DNA of 36,575 bases from a virus. Its lineage: Duplodnaviria; Caudoviricetes. The stretch spans positions 1 through 36,575 of IMG/VR virus record IMGVR_UViG_3300038321_000208; one strand, 5' to 3'. The notes below the pieces were generated by a model. It was not told the origin of the DNA and did not search any database. It saw nothing but the letters and a program-made list of their open reading frames with translations. Shown here in pieces: positions 973 to 19,800 of the stretch (position 1 is its first letter; the number at the start of each line of letters is the position of its first letter). Made by a program: the position numbers and the translations under genes.

Positions 973-1407
973 TTATACCTTCCTCTGAACGGGAGGCGTC
1001 TGGCCGTGCGGCAAATTGAGGTAGTCGAGCAGGGCTGTTTCCAAAATACGTGAATAGTTCACTCCCTTTTGCTCGGCAGCTTCTTTGAGCCATGCCGGCA
1101 AGGTGATATTTGTCTTTACTCGCCTATTGTCCATTTCGTCCCGCACCATATCCGGGTACACGGTGACAGGCGAAACAAAATAACCGGATGCTGTATCAGG
1201 ATCGACCGTTGGCACTTTCGACGGCGCCGGAATCGGATCTCCATCCTGCTCCATACCATAAATGTGCAGACCCAGTGCGTCAGCGGCTTCCCGCTGAGCT
1301 TCTTCAAAGGTTTTTCCATAGCTGATGCACCCGGGGAGATCCGGAAAATAGACACCGTATCCGTCCTTGCTGGGCTCAAAAACAGCCAGATATGATAATT
1401 TACGCAT
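973..1407 (-). CDS. hicB: HicB family antitoxin
   Basis: YLAVFEP..GYGVYFPDLPGCISYGKTFEEA N-domain and C-terminal RHH-like KTNITLPAWL..A...GVNYS. The second ATG (1407) has the better RBS spacing. Confidence 0.92.
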   Translation of the reverse strand: MRKLSYLAVFEPSKDGYGVYFPDLPGCISYGKTFEEAQREAADALGLHIYGMEQDGDPIPAPSKVPTVDPDTASGYFVSPVTVYPDMVRDEMDNRRVKTNITLPAWLKEAAEQKGVNYSRILETALLDYLNLPHGQTPPVQRKV

Positions 1408-1440
1408 CCACATAACCTCCTTCTCGCCGCAGGCGGGGCT

Positions 1441-1629
1441 TTATTTAAGCCCTGCCTGTTTTTTTATGCTGCGTAACGTGCCGAGGGGAAGATCGCCTGA
1501 ATGGCTCGGGACGGTGACTTTGCCGGGTTTCGTCGGATGCTTCAGCTGTATGTGCGAGCCCTTCGTTCTGCCCCGCACTTCCTGCCAACCGTCGTTGTGA
1601 AGTATCTTCAGAACTTCCCGAACTGTCAT
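1441..1629 (-). CDS. hicA: HicA family toxin (RNase)
   Basis: 62 aa with GW.EVR..KGSH.QLKHP.KPGKVTVP.H..DLP.GTL.SI.KQAGL; directly upstream of hicB. Confidence 0.95.
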   Translation of the reverse strand: MTVREVLKILHNDGWQEVRGRTKGSHIQLKHPTKPGKVTVPSHSGDLPLGTLRSIKKQAGLK

Positions 1630-6404: not shown

Positions 6405-7733
6405 GATAGCACTATTCCGTTGTAGGGAAAACCAGCCTTCCGTCCATTCCGTATCGGTGTATTCTCCGAAGATTTTTTTCCGAAGCGAATAGCTGTTGCA
6501 GTGTGAAAGCAGAGCGTCATAGGCGCTGAGAGTCTTCTTTGCCCGCTCCAATGAAATTTCACCATCTCGATAATCTTCCATCAAGGCCCGCAACCTTCTC
6601 CGCATTCTAAGGGCTGTGCTTTTCCGAAGTTTCAAATGGTTAGACCACAATCGGAAGCCGCAGAACTCGATTCCAAGGCTGATGGGACGAATGCAGACCT
6701 TGTCGTTCAGATCCAGCTGCAACCGGTCGTTGATGAAATTCTCCAGCATATCCTGCCAATCTTTCAGCTGCTGTTTGCTGTCCGAAAGGATTATAACATC
6801 ATCGTTATACCGGACATAATATTTGATACGGAGCTCTCTCTTTGCGTACTGATCGAGCGGATTAAGGTTCAGATTTGCAAGCATTTGAGATGATAGGGAT
6901 CCCACCGGGAGCCCCCGGTCCGGGATGCGCTCAGCCCTCGGAACTTCTTCCGGACGCTTTCCTGACGGCAGCCCGAAGTTCTGATTATTATCGCAAACAG
7001 TCGCTCTCATCCACGCCTGAACCTGCTTATCGCTGACCTTTCGATTAAACTCTCGAAGCACAACAGCATGTGAAATACGATAGAAATATTTCGATATGTC
7101 TAATTTTAGATAATACCATTTATGGCCTTCAGGAGCATCTTGGAATTCGATTTTTGATTTCCTCGATATGGCCTGCAGGTCATTGATTGATATTTTTTCG
7201 GAAGTTTGGTTTATGGAAATCTCACGGAAACCCTCGTGCGTCCAAACAGCCAGCTTCCCATTATTCCGAACGTTCTGCCAACCGGCTTCAGAAAGAACTC
7301 GTAAAACCGTACTGACCGGATAACAAGGTACATTGTTCTGCCAATCGACCAGCCGAAGCCAGTAATACAGTCGTTCTACCGCCGCAATCTGTCCTCTATC
7401 CTTAATGCTCGCAAAAGTATCTTTTATGTATCCACGGACAAATCGAGGATTCAGCACCCGGTAAAATGCCCACTGTATTACTCGGTCTTCAAATGGCTGC
7501 TTCATAATAAGGCGGCATTTGGGTTCATAAATATAAGATTCATGATACGGGCCTGGGTGGAAATCTCCAGCGAGTAGCCGCTTCTGAATGTGGCATAAAT
7601 TATCAATGAGATGGGCCGAAAACTTGAGAACTTCAGAACGATACCGTTTATCTCGCCGGGCTTTCAAATACGCCCGGTGGATGTTTTCAAACCTCGTGAT
7701 CTCAGGAAATACATTTTTTATCGTTTTTGGCAT
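6387..7733 (-). CDS. DGR reverse transcriptase with HicA-like insertion
   Basis: YEPK.RLI, F.DRVIQ, LKLDISKYF, GLPVGSLSSQ (DGR-type SQ), YVRYNDD and GIEFCGF motifs; no group II intron En domain. Confidence 0.95.
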   Translation of the reverse strand: MPKTIKNVFPEITRFENIHRAYLKARRDKRYRSEVLKFSAHLIDNLCHIQKRLLAGDFHPGPYHESYIYEPKCRLIMKQPFEDRVIQWAFYRVLNPRFVRGYIKDTFASIKDRGQIAAVERLYYWLRLVDWQNNVPCYPVSTVLRVLSEAGWQNVRNNGKLAVWTHEGFREISINQTSEKISINDLQAISRKSKIEFQDAPEGHKWYYLKLDISKYFYRISHAVVLREFNRKVSDKQVQAWMRATVCDNNQNFGLPSGKRPEEVPRAERIPDRGLPVGSLSSQMLANLNLNPLDQYAKRELRIKYYVRYNDDVIILSDSKQQLKDWQDMLENFINDRLQLDLNDKVCIRPISLGIEFCGFRLWSNHLKLRKSTALRMRRRLRALMEDYRDGEISLERAKKTLSAYDALLSHCNSYSLRKKIFGEYTDTEWTEGWFSLQRNSAIKESDE

Positions 7734-7887
7734 CTAAGACCTCAGGAAAACGCAAAAGGCGGCTTTCACTTTCGCTACTTGCAGCCTTCGCAAAATTCAT
7801 TTTTTTGCCAAACTGGCACGGAAACGAATTCCTTTATCCTCAGACTCCGTGCGGCGTCCATGGACGCGCGCCCCTGGTATGAGGTAG

Positions 7888-7999
7888 AGCGGCGCGGAAA
7901 CCCACGCTCCCCGAAGTATACGAGCGCGGATTATTGATGTTGAGGGCGAACACGCCAGCGGAAGCACCATTGGAATAATTACCACCGCGAAAAGGCAAA
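7888..7999 (-). ncRNA. DGR template repeat TR-a (RT-proximal)
   Basis: 112-bp homolog of VR (LPFRGGNYSNGASAGVFALNINNPRSYTSGSVGFRAA). The 3' half differs from VR at 5 nt, 4 of them template A. Confidence 0.92.
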
Positions 8000-8160
8000 A
8001 ATAAATTCGTTCCCATGTTTGCATCGGAGCGATTTTCGCAGATGTGCTACTCACGGCTCCTTAACGTTTCATTTTTTTACTGTAATCAGTACGGAAGCAG
8101 TTCCCTTTATCCTCGGGCTCTGTGCGCTGTCCATAAACATACGTCTCTGGCGCGAGGTAG

Positions 8161-8272
8161 AGCGGCGCGGAAACCCACATTGGTCCCGGAATTGGCACGA
8201 GGGTTATTCAGATTGAGGGCGAACACGCCAGCGGAAGCAGAATCATTCCAATCACCACCGCGAAAAGGCAAA
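8161..8272 (-). ncRNA. DGR template repeat TR-b (middle)
   Basis: 112-bp homolog of VR (LPFRGGDWNDSASAGVFALNLNNPRANSGTNVGFRAA). The 5' half differs from VR at only 2 nt, both template A. Confidence 0.92.
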
Positions 8273-8449
8273 ACATGAACTACTCCCAAATTCATCAAAT
8301 TAAGCTATGTTTTGCGAGGTTTGCATTTGCTACTACCAGCATCCATAGCTAATTCATTTTTTTGCCGAAATGTTAAGCATGGAAACAGGCTCCTTTAATC
8401 TCGTGTTCTGTTCATATATCCTTAGATATATGCCTCCGACAGGAGATAG

Positions 8450-8561
8450 AGCGGCGCGGAAACCCACATCGCTATTGGAGTACGAGCGGGTATAATTGAT
8501 ATAGAGGGCGAACACGCCAGCGGAAGCACCGTTACCGTATTCACCACCGCGAAAAGGCAAA
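8450..8561 (-). ncRNA. DGR template repeat TR-c (avd-proximal)
   Basis: 112-bp homolog (LPFRGGEYGNGASAGVFALYINYTRSYSNSDVGFRAA) with the same invariant blocks and flanking structure; no matching VR segment in the window. Confidence 0.82.
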
Positions 8562-8579
8562 ATACAGCCTGTTCCCGAA

Positions 8580-9098
8580 TTATTTTTTAGAAATTTTCTT
8601 TTGGCATGCGTAGCATAAAGATCTACCGAAGTGTGCAGTAGAATAGTCGTTGATTCTCTTTGTTATTACAGCACCGCAAACCGAGCATATATATTCTTTT
8701 CCTTCTGAATCGATTGTTCCGGACTTTTCACGCTCAGATTTTAACCACCCCCCTACCATCTGCCCGACCTCGACAATGCATTTTGAAATGTTTTCAAACT
8801 GGGGATCCTTCAGATAACCCAAATCGTTTGCCCACTGAATATCCATCTTGAACGCCCCGATCTCGGTATCAAGTTGACGAAGCGTGTCCTTTTTAGTGTA
8901 TTTTTTGTTCGCAACAAAGATCAGCTTTTTTATTGAATTGAATTCCTGCATCAGCGTTTGGACGATTACAAAGCGCTGCTCCTTATTCATTTTCCCGAGC
9001 ACCGGCCATAAGTACAGACCGAGGTCATACACCTTTTGCTGGATAAAAAGTTGCTCGTAGGCTTTTCCAAAGTGTCTATGATCGTTCTTTTCAGACAT
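8580..9098 (-). CDS. avd: DGR accessory variability determinant with C-terminal zinc ribbon
   Basis: L.I.QK.YD...Y....L, K.QRF, ANKK..KK.TL..LD.E and EVG.MVGGW.K four-helix-bundle motifs; located directly upstream of the TRs; CxxC-x20-CxxC tail. Confidence 0.9.
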   Translation of the reverse strand: MSEKNDHRHFGKAYEQLFIQQKVYDLGLYLWPVLGKMNKEQRFVIVQTLMQEFNSIKKLIFVANKKYTKKDTLRQLDTEIGAFKMDIQWANDLGYLKDPQFENISKCIVEVGQMVGGWLKSEREKSGTIDSEGKEYICSVCGAVITKRINDYSTAHFGRSLCYACQKKISKK

Positions 9099-9121
9099 AG
9101 AAGCTCCATATTATCAAAAAC

Positions 9122-9199
9122 TTTACCTATTCTGTAATAGTATAATGAGTTTCTGATATAAAAATCTCGCTTTTGGAATGAAATTACAATCTTCGTAAT
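9122..9199 (-). promoter_or_regulatory. avd-TR-RT operon promoter/operator
   Basis: -10 TATACT (9139-9144); ATTAC-N7-GTAAT (9183-9199); TTAC-N7-GTAA (9123-9137); 15-bp block identical to 918-932. Confidence 0.65.
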
Positions 9200-9216
9200 T
9201 TTTCGACAGGAAAATC

Positions 9217-9251
9217 AAAATGGGGATAGCCCTCAAACCTATCCCCATTTT
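9217..9251. terminator. Terminator-like hairpin separating tail genes from avd
   Basis: AAAATGGGGATAG-N9-CTATCCCCATTTT perfect 13-bp inverted repeat. Confidence 0.7.
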
Positions 9252-9264
9252 CCAATTTTTCGCG

Positions 9265-9308
9265 ACCCGCTTACGCGGGTGTAGATAAAAGTGGCGCTAC
9301 CGCGCCAC
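9265..9308 (-). promoter_or_regulatory. DGR target-recognition hairpins downstream of VR
   Basis: Minus strand: GTGGCGC-GGTA-GCGCCAC (9291-9308, GRNA loop) and ACCCGC-GTAA-GCGGGT (9265-9280). Confidence 0.75.
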
Positions 9309-9333
9309 AGCAGATATTCTTAAAACGCAAAAA

Positions 9334-10710
9334 TCACGATACGCAAAAAGCGGCGCGGAAACCCACGCTCCCCGAAGTCGACGAGCGCGGATTATCGATG
9401 CCGAGGGCGAACACGCCAGCGGAAGCAGAATCACGCCAATCACCACCGCGAAAAGGCAAACACTCAGTATTTGCACTTGTACCTTGGTACTGATAATCAT
9501 TCCCAAATTCGGCCAATCCGGAACTATCGCAATCCCCCATAACAGCGTGCTTCGCAAGTTTAGGATCCGTGTTGAGTTCCGTAACATCTTCGCTACTGCT
9601 TGACCAATTTGTCGGGAATTGTAAGCCCGTATCCGCTTCATCAACATATAAATAGCCGGTCCCTGCACTCCCTACTTTCAACTTCAAGCCGGCAGTCCAC
9701 TCCCAGACGTTACCATTGAGGTCATAGACACCATTGACCCTTCCCGTATGGCTCGTAAGATTCTGACCTGTCTTCCACCCTGATTTAATACCAGTGCCGG
9801 TCAATGCACGGCTGGAAACCGTAGGATCTGCCGTAAACGTGATTCCAGCGTCGTCAGTATCTTTCAAGCTGCTATTGTTTTCATAAGGTCCCCAACGGTT
9901 ACTTCCAAAACGGTCCGGGCCAAGGAGCATCGAATAAATGCCCAGTGCAACCCATTCTTCATCGCGTATAAGGCGTACTCCGATGTCTTTTCCATTCGTC
10001 GCATCGCTGGTCGCACAGGCGATCAAAGCATTGTCATATGTAATGGTCGTCCACGGGATTACACCGCTCTTTGAGACAGCGACCGTACTGCTACCGCCTG
10101 TGGAGGCCGTCGCATCGGCTTTGGATGCTTGAAATTTGAAAGCATAAAAGGGATGGAAAAGAACGACATTGTAATCCACACCCTCCGTCCCGGTTGGCCT
10201 ATGCCGAACAAAAAAGCCTTTTGGCCTACTGGCGTAACCGCAGGCAGATGGATTAATAACCTGAAATGCCCTAAAACCGGGCTGATAGACCCATGCGTTT
10301 GATCCCAGGTTAAAATCGTGAACTTCCAGACTGGAATCACAAAACTCTACTGCTGTTCCATCAGCATAGCCGCCAGAAGGCGCTTCCGGGTAAATGGTAA
10401 TCGGAACTTTGTTCCCTGCCGCCGTTCCACCGGTCGCGACAAGATGATAATTTCCGCCGATTTTTATCATGGCGGTTTTGTTGATATTTCCCGTCAGTGT
10501 GCCGCTTGCCGAATATACATTAACGCTCTGACTTCCCTCGGCGACAGTTTCGACCATAAGCCCCGTTGACGGATTGAGAGTATTTGATACATCTTTCCAG
10601 TGTTCCCGCTGCCATAAGGCGGAAAACACTTCCACGTCGTCTGAATTTAATGAAAAGTTTTCTGCCGGAGGTTCCGGTTGCACCTTTTTCTGCGCACCAA
10701 AGATAATCAT
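9334..10710 (-). CDS. DGR target: tail/receptor-binding protein with C-terminal FGE-type C-type lectin (Mtd-like) domain
   Basis: PW.TI...A..AC, LI...EW, GVYDLNGNVWEW and RGG.W......G........R.....GFR motifs; last gene of the tail module. Confidence 0.9.
   Translation of the reverse strand: MIIFGAQKKVQPEPPAENFSLNSDDVEVFSALWQREHWKDVSNTLNPSTGLMVETVAEGSQSVNVYSASGTLTGNINKTAMIKIGGNYHLVATGGTAAGNKVPITIYPEAPSGGYADGTAVEFCDSSLEVHDFNLGSNAWVYQPGFRAFQVINPSACGYASRPKGFFVRHRPTGTEGVDYNVVLFHPFYAFKFQASKADATASTGGSSTVAVSKSGVIPWTTITYDNALIACATSDATNGKDIGVRLIRDEEWVALGIYSMLLGPDRFGSNRWGPYENNSSLKDTDDAGITFTADPTVSSRALTGTGIKSGWKTGQNLTSHTGRVNGVYDLNGNVWEWTAGLKLKVGSAGTGYLYVDEADTGLQFPTNWSSSSEDVTELNTDPKLAKHAVMGDCDSSGLAEFGNDYQYQGTSANTECLPFRGGDWRDSASAGVFALGIDNPRSSTSGSVGFRAAFCVS
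9349..9460 (-). repeat. DGR variable repeat (VR)
   Basis: LPFRGGDWRDSASAGVFALGIDNPRSSTSGSVGFRAA at the extreme 3' end of the target; colinear with all three TRs. Confidence 0.95.
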
Positions 10711-16826: not shown

Positions 16827-19800
16827 TATGCGCTTTCCTCCAGCGGCGTGTTGTCGTGATCCTTTTCAATCCCCTCGGCAATCGCATCGCTGACAATGTT
16901 CGCTATTTCATCCTTGTGGTCTTTAATTTGCTGTACCACATCCCCATTTCCTCCTTCTACAACAATTTTGATGGACTGAATGATGACCTGGGGCTTACCG
17001 CCGCCAGCGCCTCCGGCCGCAGCGGGCGCCGGACGCGGATGCGGATTCGGAGTATCAGCCTCCGAAGGACTCGACGGGAATTGAATGACATCCCCACCGA
17101 AACCGCCGTTGGCTTTGGCGTCAATGCTCTGGCCGAGCGCGCTCCCGGTCTGCCGCCAGAGCTGCACACCACGATCATGCCTCCGGCTGCTCAGTGGGAT
17201 CACCATTTCAGGCGTTCCCTCTTCACCGAGAAGCGTCACTGTCGGCCGGGATATAAGGCCGCCGGCCGCCTTGTGCGCGCTTTGAGTGGATCCGCTTGTC
17301 GCAGCGCTGTAACCTGCGCTGAAATTGTGAGTAATCGTTCCCCATATGTCTTTGAAGAAGTTCGGCAGGGTATTAGTGAAGAATCCCTTGATGCTATTCC
17401 AAATGGTGGTTCCGAGCTCCGGGAGGGTATTTGTAAAAAACGTATTTACCGAACCCCATAGGCTGGAGAAGAATCCGGGGATCGTTTTCGTAAAGAACGG
17501 AGTGATGTTGTTATTCCAGACGTTCGACGCCCACGTCGGAAGTGTGGAGGTGAAGAACGTCGAAATCCCATTCCAGAGGGTTCCGAAGAAATTCGGGATG
17601 CTCTGCGTAAAGAACGGGACGATGTGGCCATTCCAGACGTTTGACACCCACGTCGGAAGTGTGGAGGTGAAGAACGTCGAAATCCCATTCCAGAGGGTTC
17701 CGAAGAAATTCGGGATGCTCTGCGTAAAGAACGGGACGATGTGGCCATTCCAGACGTTTGACACCCACGTTGGAAGCGTGGAGGTAAAGAACGTCGAGAT
17801 CCCGTTCCAGAGGGTTCCGAAGAAATTCGGGATGCTTTGCGTAAAGAACGGGACGATGTGGCCGTTCCAAACATTTGACGCCCACGTCGGAAGTGTGGAG
17901 GTAAAGAACGTCGAGATCCCATTCCACAGGTTCCCAAAAAAGTTTGGTAGATCTTGGGTGAAGAATATTTGCGCTTTTCCGGTTGCATAACCTATGGCAA
18001 AGGGCAACTGCTGTGTAAAAAAGTTTGGAAGTGTACTCGTGAAGAACGTACCGATGCCGGTCCCCACCGTTTGCACGGCCTGTGGGATCATCTGCGTAAA
18101 GAACGTGCCGAGGCCGGCTCCCATCGTCTGAAAGGCACCGGGAATCTTATTTGTGAAGACATCCCCGATGGCCTTCCCCGCGCCGGAAACCGTTGGAGCG
18201 ACTTTTGTGCTTACAAAAGTCCCGATCCCGGTGCCAATCTTTCCTGCGGTGTCCGGAACCGTCTTTGCGAAAAAGCCTCCGACCGCTTTGCCGGCGTTGT
18301 TCAGGGCGCCGCCCTTATTCGTGGATTTTGCGAGTGCCGAGCCGGCTTTGTTGCCGCCAATCAGGGCACTTGCACCGCCTACACCGGCGCCGACCAGCGC
18401 GCCCACAGCTGTACCAACCCCAGGCACGACAGATCCTATCAACGCGCCGGCGCCGATCATTCCAAGCTTTGTCCCACCCTGGAACTGCTTTTCTCGCTTG
18501 GCTTGCCCGGCCGGCATCTTACTCGCATTATAGAGATCCTTGCCGGCGCTGGCCACGCCGACTCCGGCTGTAATCGCGCCGGCAGTTGCGGCGGAACCGG
18601 CCAACGCCGCACCGCCTGCGGTCGCGGCACCGGAACCGAGCTTTGTCCCAATTTTTCCAAACAGGCTTCCTGCCTTAGACGCGCCGAATTTCTGCAACAG
18701 ACTGCCGCCTGCGGCCGCCTCGCCGGATTCCAGCAGCGGTTTTTCTCCGGAAGGAAGCGCCGGTGCCCCGCTGGACCGTGAGCCGGTCGCCGGGACGCTG
18801 GGCACGCCGACAAAAGATTTTCCGACCAGGTTCACCACGTTCGCCAGCACGTTCATAGTGCCGATGGTAGAAGCGTTCGGCATGTTCATCCCGGAACCGC
18901 CGCTTCCGCTGTTGCTTTTACCCTTTCCGAAAATGCCGCTCAGGGCACCCGTGATCGTTTTGCTCGTGGTGATTGCATTGGAAAGGCCCTTCACGAAACT
19001 TGTGCCGAATTTAAGCCCGATCGCGACCATAAGCACCTTGTGCGTTTCGGCGAAATTCTGAAACGCGCTTACGATCTTTTTGCCGTCGAAGCCCTTCAAA
19101 AACCCAGAGCAGAAGCTTGAGCCAAGATTGGCTCCCTGCTGCCGCGCATCCCCATCGCTGAATCCGAGGAGCGCCGTGATGCCGCCTGTTATCCCGGAAC
19201 CGAGGCTTTCCCCGATCCCGGACAATTTCTTTGCGATTTTTCTTTTTCCTGTGCTGTCCCACCAATCGGCAAATGGTTTTGAAATAACCTCGTCCCACGC
19301 AATTTTGATTTTCCCGCCGATGGATGCGTTTTTGAAGCGGTCCGAGTTGAAAACCTTGGTCATGCGGTCCTCGATGTGGCCCAGCACATCAAATACTTTC
19401 GTGCTTAACGCAGCGCCGAAATCTTCGAGGCTCGACCCGGCCTTGTTCAGCGTCGGACCAATATCCGCGAGGAATTTATTGAACCGCGAAAGGCCCTTAA
19501 TCGCACCGGTCTGGAGGCCGTGCCCCCATTTTGAGATAATTCCGACATCGAATGTATCTTTGATCTGCGATAGAAGCCCTGATGCAGTACGGTTAGCCGT
19601 CTTGTCCATCATGCCATTGAATTCACCCATGCCTTTTACGATGGCGTCAATGGCTTTATCCGCTGGAATTAATCCCTTTTCGGCCATCTTCTGGATCTCC
19701 GGAACCGTCTTCCCCATCGACTGGGCAACATATTTCCAGGCGTTGATGCTATTGTCGGTCAGCTGCAGCATCTCGGAAGAGGACAGTTTGCCTTTCATCC

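Follow-up and report, generated by a model that had tools for sequence, protein, structure and literature searches.

Three different template cassettes in tandem and a single mosaic VR in a phage DGR

DGR templates are usually taken as single and invariant, and the DGR described here raises the question of how one VR can follow two different templates in its two halves. The window, by which we mean the whole stretch of DNA that was analyzed, is a virus record of 36,575 nt whose minus strand carries head, contractile-tail, and lysis genes, and it is probably a partial phage genome. Its DGR lies 3′ of the tail-fiber genes in the order target, avd (the accessory gene of DGRs), three repeats, and RT; it is a phage DGR whose three template cassettes, all different, stand in tandem and whose single VR is a mosaic (Table 1). 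The relatives of its RT come from Firmicutes genomes and prophages. A promoter scan of positions 7600–9500 gave 5 sites compared with 2.9 expected. A 33-nt, 82% repeat found both at 918–950, downstream of hicB, and at 9155–9187, upstream of avd, may be regulatory or due to chance, and the four 117-nt repeats in the tape-measure gene (17393–17977) are ordinary.

Table 1. Coordinates of the DGR features in the window
Feature	Position	Strand	Basis or remark
Target gene, 458 aa	9334..10710	-	End of tail module; phrog_2889; phrog_5302 tail protein
VR, mosaic, codons 418-454	9349..9460	-	Position-by-position VR/TR alignment
VR 5′ segment, TR-b-derived, D-W-R-D-S at aa 424-428	9428..9460	-	2 differences, both at A
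Crossover window, 27 nt, encoding the constant ASAGVFAL	9401..9427	-	Identical in TR-a and TR-b
VR 3′ segment, TR-a-derived, aa 437-448 variable	9349..9400	-	Constant GC-rich, IMH-like end
7-bp GC hairpin, GGTA loop	9291..9308	-	Downstream of VR; fits GRNA target-recognition consensus
avd, 172 aa	8580..9098	-	bAvd profile match, E 2e-16; Cys-rich (zinc-ribbon-like) C-terminal tail
Template unit c	8290..8576	-	Leader 8567-8576, TR-c 8450-8561, own stop strand in spacer 8381-8390
Template unit b	8017..8287	-	Leader 8278-8287, TR-b 8161-8272, own stop strand in spacer 8093-8102
Template unit a	7734..8014	-	Leader 8005-8014, TR-a 7888-7999, own stop strand in spacer 7820-7829
DGR reverse transcriptase, 448 aa	6387..7733	-	Intact frame, RVT_1, YNDD motif

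The original prediction held that the VR follows TR-b in its 5′ half and TR-a in its 3′ half, and a position-by-position alignment confirmed this pattern and returned every one of its counts exactly. The 5′ part (9428–9459) differs from TR-b at 2 positions, both of them template adenines, compared with 9 positions (6 non-A) for TR-a and 8 (5 non-A) for TR-c. The 3′ part (9350–9402) differs from TR-a at 5 positions, namely four adenines, two of which sit at 9401–9402, and a T>G change at 9379, compared with 23 differences from TR-b, among which the roughly 16 non-A differences counted by hand proved to be exactly 16, and with 19 (11 non-A) from TR-c. A 25-nt block at 9403–9427 is identical in all four copies, and it was here that the switch had been placed. 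That shared block stands, but the AA at 9401–9402 is also common to TR-a and TR-b, so the crossover may lie anywhere in 27 nt, bounded by 9428, the last site specific to TR-b, and 9400, the first one specific to TR-a.

No single template explains the whole VR, as at least seven non-A mismatches remain for the best one, and the single invariant TR of a canonical, BPP-1-type DGR was therefore not found here. Along the mosaic path, 6 of the 7 differences fall at template adenines, so that the adenine pattern holds within each segment and against no single TR, and 6 of the 14 template adenines are changed, compared with 51% in control pairs. For these controls, related RT loci supplied 126 distinct two-copy TR/VR pairs, which showed no non-A difference in 100 cases and one in 17 (0–1 in 117 of 126), with a non-A rate of 0.37% per site over the pairs with at most 5. 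At this rate, seven non-A differences from TR-a alone would have a probability of about 8e-8, compared with about 0.29 for one stray T>G. A fourth template matching the whole VR, which would have undone the original prediction, was found neither by an ungapped scan nor by nhmmer in the 36.6-kb record, which is itself probably partial, and use of TR-c was not seen in the VR sequences of the window lineage.

The VR lies in frame at the C terminus of the target (codons 418–454 of 458). The C-terminal domain gave a weak profile match to FGE-sulfatase (E 0.004), and its best solved match was TaqVP (5VF4; Foldseek E 7e-14), with Mtd also matched; it is predicted to adopt an FGE-type C-type lectin fold. 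In the structure model, which is of moderate confidence (pLDDT 64.6 overall and 84–88 over the VR), the two VR halves would form a loop before the constant ASAGVFAL and a strand plus loop after it, with the D-W-R-D-S segment modeled as a loop. By analogy with known CLec variable proteins, these loops and the strand would form the binding face of the target, which is predicted to be a host-binding protein with a variable tip.

The three templates differ from one another at 23–27 positions over 110 nt, 12–17 of them not involving A, and share constant blocks of 18, 25, and 17 nt. Every TR in the window is preceded by a leader starting with GGG and followed by a spacer, and the leader pairs with its own spacer over 10 bp. 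The cognate duplex is the strongest in all three units: −17.9 versus −8.3 kcal/mol for non-cognate pairs in unit c, −14.4 versus −7.1 and −4.4 in unit b, and −13.4 versus −8.7 and −4.4 in unit a. Over 48 units of 18 loci, 97% of the cells of this stop helix pair and two-sided changes occur at 7 of its 10 pairs; a second helix, between the TR tail and the spacer (the primer duplex), is 91% paired, with energies no better than those of shuffles even for cognate pairs. When the partners were slid by 1–3 columns, pairing of the whole structure fell from 94.5% to 43–65%, a control biased in favor of the structure because the latter was derived from the same sequences. In some units of L106, L102, L180, and L181, clean private pairing is absent. 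Both helices sit where the BPP-1 RNP has its stop and template:primer duplexes. Judged from this private, covarying leader:spacer duplex, each of the three units is likely a self-contained template RNA. The homology between TR and VR stops at 9349, at the IMH/IMH* divergence, and the hairpin lies beyond it; the same hairpin is identical in L002 and L177 and fits the GRNA target-recognition consensus given in the available part of PMC3240598. A different layout is seen in compact arrays (L091:3930–4330, L056, L016, and L110), whose upstream templates lie 28–42 nt apart without a spacer of their own; all leaders there fit the single downstream spacer, yet upstream template sequences appear mutagenized in VRs, which suggests competing leaders or read-through cDNA.

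Contigs from four of the 23 runs listed, none of which was an RNA run, were compared with the window, at the contig level. In run X1, possibly the source sample, independently assembled Logan contigs match the window exactly over 8504–9378 and 9404–9588 at a depth of about 24, and thus a TR-a-type 3′ end and a mutated TR-b-type 5′ part were each recovered by a second assembler. Positions 9379–9403 are bridged by none of the 8 X1 contig pieces listed (of 12), and the X1 assembly has no branch at 9366. In X4, which comes from another study, a contig departs from the window at 9366 with the 3′ sequence of TR-b, while its 5′ part is TR-b-like and differs from the window at 9435, a TR-b adenine. 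Different templates therefore hold the 3′ part in different populations, and the X4 state, with a TR-b-type 3′ end and a TR-b-like 5′ part, is the expected precursor of the window VR. The contigs of X2 and X6 end at 9366, where the template types diverge. In L001, a 94%-related phage, the whole VR is TR-b-like and departs from the TR-b of the window at 4 internal non-A positions. The same phage shows, at L001:3900–3990, avd joined in frame to the C-terminal third of the RT with the whole template array absent, by deletion or misassembly.

When a TR-core profile was run over 249 fetched loci and the window, 45 had at least three copies, and removal of duplicates and of loci without an upstream VR, with L256 added, left 29 multi-template loci. 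Fifteen of their VRs fit one template with 0–1 non-A differences and one fits with 3, while seven are clean mosaics (window, L002, L016, L017 with three templates, L091, L092, and L256), two are ambiguous (L118 and L175), and four find no explanation in their own array (L008, L009, L120, and L151). In the clean mosaics, three of which come from a single phage group, 7–11 non-A differences remain with the best single template, compared with 0–1 along the mosaic path. All eight junctions fall in identical blocks of 11–27 nt, three of which have only 11–13 nt, and the template order is that of the window in five and reversed in three (L002, L017, and L091). The L091 mosaic comes from an isolate assembly whose genome has no further copy with the exact pattern, and that of L002 from a CheckV-complete provirus with only four copies. 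The template used also differs by strain within one phage group (T-1 in L015, T-2 in L176, and T-3 in L056). The claim that at least two templates are used therefore holds, on account of the adenine changes that each half shows against its own template, the TR-b-type 3′ end in X4, and the mosaics in relatives. A FastTree built from 155 RTs places 31 of 35 multi-template rows together in one group of 37 rows (support 92) and puts the window in a 14-row group that is entirely multi-template; the tree, which requires 10 changes, at least 7 of them forced, does not show a single origin of arrays. Searches for further VR alleles gave none for the Enterocloster type in a viral scan, only the four known contigs for the Holdemanella type, 1 of 37 genomes in a genus search, and 3 of 301 in a family search.

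Several relatives bear traces of other kinds of exchange. Three of the 29 loci have VRs nearly unmutated with respect to a template (0/19 adenines changed in L187, 0/11 in L110, whose VR equals its T-2 exactly, and 1/17 in L096), which points to some RT-independent copying or to assembly error. L096 (Enterocloster aldenensis, single contig) and L187 have five-template arrays whose template halves are shuffled between strains. In two metagenomic assemblies, templates appear, from their sequences, to have been overwritten by mutated neighbors: T-3 of L172 (L172:753–864) is a copy of the whole T-2 that is changed at 8 adenine sites and set within the flanks of T-3, and T-3 of L015 (L015:4431–4542) carries an adenine-mutated 5′ half of T-2 inside its own flanks, neither having a hairpin nearby. 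Templates that lack AAY codons and resemble spent VRs (L056 T-4, L102 T-2, L151 T-2, and L110 T-1 to T-3) are a possible archive of past variants. The 3′ part of the L009 VR (L009:2962–3073) fits none of its own three templates and fits a template of L003 at adenines only; the first unit of L009 is shortened, and a lost template or action in trans might be responsible. T-2 of L092 is a deletion hybrid. In L003 (3600–3880), L014, and L194, the target gene runs straight into a template unit and spacer with avd absent or displaced, a VR-TR collapse either in the genome or in assembly.

We think it probable that the window mosaic arose by sequential retrohoming from different templates, the later cDNA resolving at internal homology. 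According to the available text of PMC3240598, integration in BPP-1 starts at the 3′ end, and homology of at least 8 bp completes 5′ integration, with at least 19 bp being more efficient; the homology-set 5′ boundary is generalized in the accessible portion of PMC5758913. Each unit would form a primer duplex and a stop duplex of its own, like those in the BPP-1 RNP, and would yield its own mutagenized cDNA. The cDNA of TR-b might have rewritten the VR first, and a later TR-a cDNA, starting beside the hairpin at the shared 3′ end, would pair with the TR-b-type VR only at the constant blocks. Its resolution within the central block of 27 nt, and not at the 18–20-nt 5′ end, would leave a loop from TR-b upstream and a strand and loop from TR-a downstream. 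Such a system would swap preset loop scaffolds and then mutate them locally. The original prediction of a TR-b-type VR overwritten by TR-a thus survives as the best explanation, with the order of events taken from the analogy to BPP-1. A cDNA that meets a VR made from another template would find homology to it in the constant blocks only; resolution at internal sites should then be frequent, whichever template comes first, and should use short blocks, and the junctions in relatives are as this model expects. The apparent overwriting of L015 and L172 templates without a nearby hairpin counts against it and suggests that homology-only patching can occur; together with the near-unmutated VRs, it indicates that exchanges can occur by other routes.

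Such routes include DNA-level recombination of two VR alleles in the shared block, during co-infection or between a prophage and a phage, and homology-only patching by cDNA without a fixed 3′ start, either of which would give the same sequence. We consider this explanation unlikely, while granting it some weight. The near-unmutated VRs of L187, L110, and L096 and the overwritten templates of L172 and L015 are not tied to hairpins, and in engineered E. coli DGR cDNA is integrated into VR and TR alike by a recombinase, according to the portion of 10.64898/2026.07.21.739853 available to us. On the other hand, 7 of the 22 cleanly explained VRs are mosaic, which is many given the kilobases of identical flank open to crossovers, and no RecT match was found in three related proviruses, where RecT only was searched. 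Three junctions use only 11–13 nt, an identity that is short for RecA. Alternatively, one cDNA may have been copied from two templates, the RT starting on unit a and then switching to unit-b RNA or reading along the array, and the order seen in the window, with the 3′ part from the downstream unit and the 5′ part from the upstream unit, would fit a forward jump. The compact arrays, with their 28–42-nt linkers and leaders that all fit a single spacer, favor this idea too, and read-through or alternative pairing must exist there. Three of the eight junctions have the opposite order, however, and each leader in the window fits only its own spacer; the private stop duplexes make read-through from TR-a into TR-b less likely. 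In BPP-1, the upstream:spacer duplex stops cDNA synthesis and is required for it, and the RT, surrounded by its own spacer RNA, shows low processivity on non-cognate RNA, as stated in the accessible text of 10.1101/2023.10.23.563531. Template switching, which the original prediction had offered as an alternative, is accordingly disfavored, and we regard it as quite improbable.

The mosaic would be an artefact if pure TR-a-derived and pure TR-b-derived VRs coexisted and the assembler crossed between them in the shared block. The record is metagenomic, the block spans 25–27 nt, no listed contig piece bridges the junction, and the contigs of X2 and X6 end at 9366, as mixed populations would cause. 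Nevertheless, a k-mer of 29 or more would span discriminating bases on both sides, the X1 assembly yields the same two halves with no branch at 9366, and the same kind of mosaic occurs in the isolate genome L091, all of which makes an artefact very unlikely; two templates would be in use even then. A fourth or hybrid template (TR-b 5′ and TR-a 3′), located elsewhere or since lost, could have made the whole VR, and the partial record, the deletion hybrid in L092, and the fit of the L009 VR 3′ part to an L003 template leave some room for it. The 36.6-kb record holds no such copy, and the mosaics of L002 and L091 exist without an extra copy in a complete provirus and a genome, respectively. Moreover, in a b/a hybrid the duplex of leader b and spacer a would reach −4.4 kcal/mol instead of −13.4, and such a hybrid is predicted to be non-functional, which is also what the private stop duplexes argue, and we see hardly any likelihood that one existed.

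The RT is a DGR-clade enzyme with a 448-aa open frame, an RVT_1 domain, and a YNDD motif shared with P0001, and the best fold match of its model is bRT (8UB7; E 9e-23). An insertion of about 70 aa (7125–7346, minus strand; residues ~130–203) is predicted to fold as alpha-beta-beta-beta-alpha (pLDDT 83–94) and is possibly an RNA-binding domain; it has a weak Pfam match to HicA (E 0.011, below the cut-off), and the HicA histidine motif is absent by eye. Among 120 relatives listed, only P0001–P0006 carry it. A requirement of this HicA-like insertion for multi-template arrays was considered and rejected, since it is confined to the small RT clade of the window and most multi-TR relatives lack it. 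The phage also encodes a hicAB pair at 973–1629 (minus strand), with a HicB-like gene at 973–1413 by PHROGs and a HicA-like 62-aa ORF at 1441–1629, assigned by eye, that aligns weakly with the RT insertion (14/43; pairwise E 8e-5).

The BPP-1 DGR (mtd-VR, avd, TR, spacer, and brt) resembles that of the window in its target-avd-TR-RT order, CLec target, and bRT-like fold, as well as in adenine-specific changes, a GRNA hairpin, and template:primer and upstream:spacer duplexes at matching places. Unlike BPP-1, the window has three divergent template units that feed one mosaic VR, a private stop duplex per unit, fewer AAY codons per template (3, 5, and 6), and a HicA-like RT insertion. In silent-cassette conversion, as in Borrelia vls, Neisseria pilS/pilE, Treponema tprK, and the mosaic VSG of trypanosomes, arrays of cassettes sharing constant blocks donate segments to form mosaics. 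In the window, too, silent cassettes form an array and share constant blocks, but the donated segments carry RT-type adenine mutations and each cassette would be packaged as a template RNA; the faithful, unmutated copying of such systems was not found, both VR halves having adenine-site changes. In the available parts of PMC11661182 (53 DGRs) and PMC6642488, DGRs that carry at least two TRs likewise have more than one TR near one RT, but they are given as counts or as separate TR-VR pairs, partly removed as overlaps; those parts describe neither a tandem alternative-template array for one VR nor a mosaic VR, and a text search of six PMC11661182 supplements gave no TR-TR patterns. The multi-target DGRs of Treponema and Stenotrophomonas, as covered by the accessible text of PMC5758913, also combine one RT with several repeats and a homology-set 5′ boundary, but there one template serves many targets, the reverse of the many templates that serve one target in the window. 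In the published literature as far as it was accessible, no tandem alternative-template array or mosaic VR was found, and unremarked examples may exist in subscription papers and in most of the supplements, among them the TR-VR alignments of PMC5758913. The window thus belongs to the DGR family, with real features, tandem alternative templates and a mosaic VR, that we did not find described in print.

As read from their sequences, the templates of the window are complementary, each fully randomizing a different subset of positions: aa 424 becomes fully variable only from TR-a, aa 426 only from TR-b, and aa 446 only from TR-c. The protein space is about 1e9 per template, and the nine half-combinations would give at most 1.1e10, about four times the sum. 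The 3x3 combinations originally proposed are therefore a ceiling only, TR-c use not having been seen and relatives having a second junction of 11–13 nt, and the roughly 4-fold gain suggests that the benefit lies in alternative scaffolds rather than in sheer numbers. Array templates (85 distinct) have a mean of 5.5 AAY codons compared with 9.7 in single templates (94 distinct), numbers that are non-independent and clade-confounded, and 6 of the 85 have no AAY codon compared with 0 of the 94. These templates and the T-3 templates of L172 and L015 hint at a two-tier, self-rewriting repertoire in this Firmicutes-phage DGR lineage, in which the loop scaffolds of insulated templates are shuffled at constant blocks, mutagenized copies are written back, and the templates, instead of staying invariant, serve as a heritable archive of past variants, a tentative reading to which we give less than even credence. 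With the same reserve, insulation might be provided in the window by private stop duplexes and in compact arrays by competing leaders with one shared spacer.

Mosaic VRs would be missed, or miscalled as non-canonical, by detection tools that require a single A-biased TR/VR pair, and the private leader:spacer pairs suggest a route to multiplexed templates in DGR-based directed evolution. The integration of cDNA in DGRs is still poorly understood, according to the accessible text of 10.1101/2023.10.23.563531. Distinguishable templates mark every integration event, and the polarity of retrohoming, its tract length, and its homology needs should therefore be readable from population sequences. For the phage, a stitched VR would add loop-shuffling to the usual adenine mutagenesis, and the design, with less mutable templates that offer different preset scaffolds, resembles segment shuffling followed by hypermutation.
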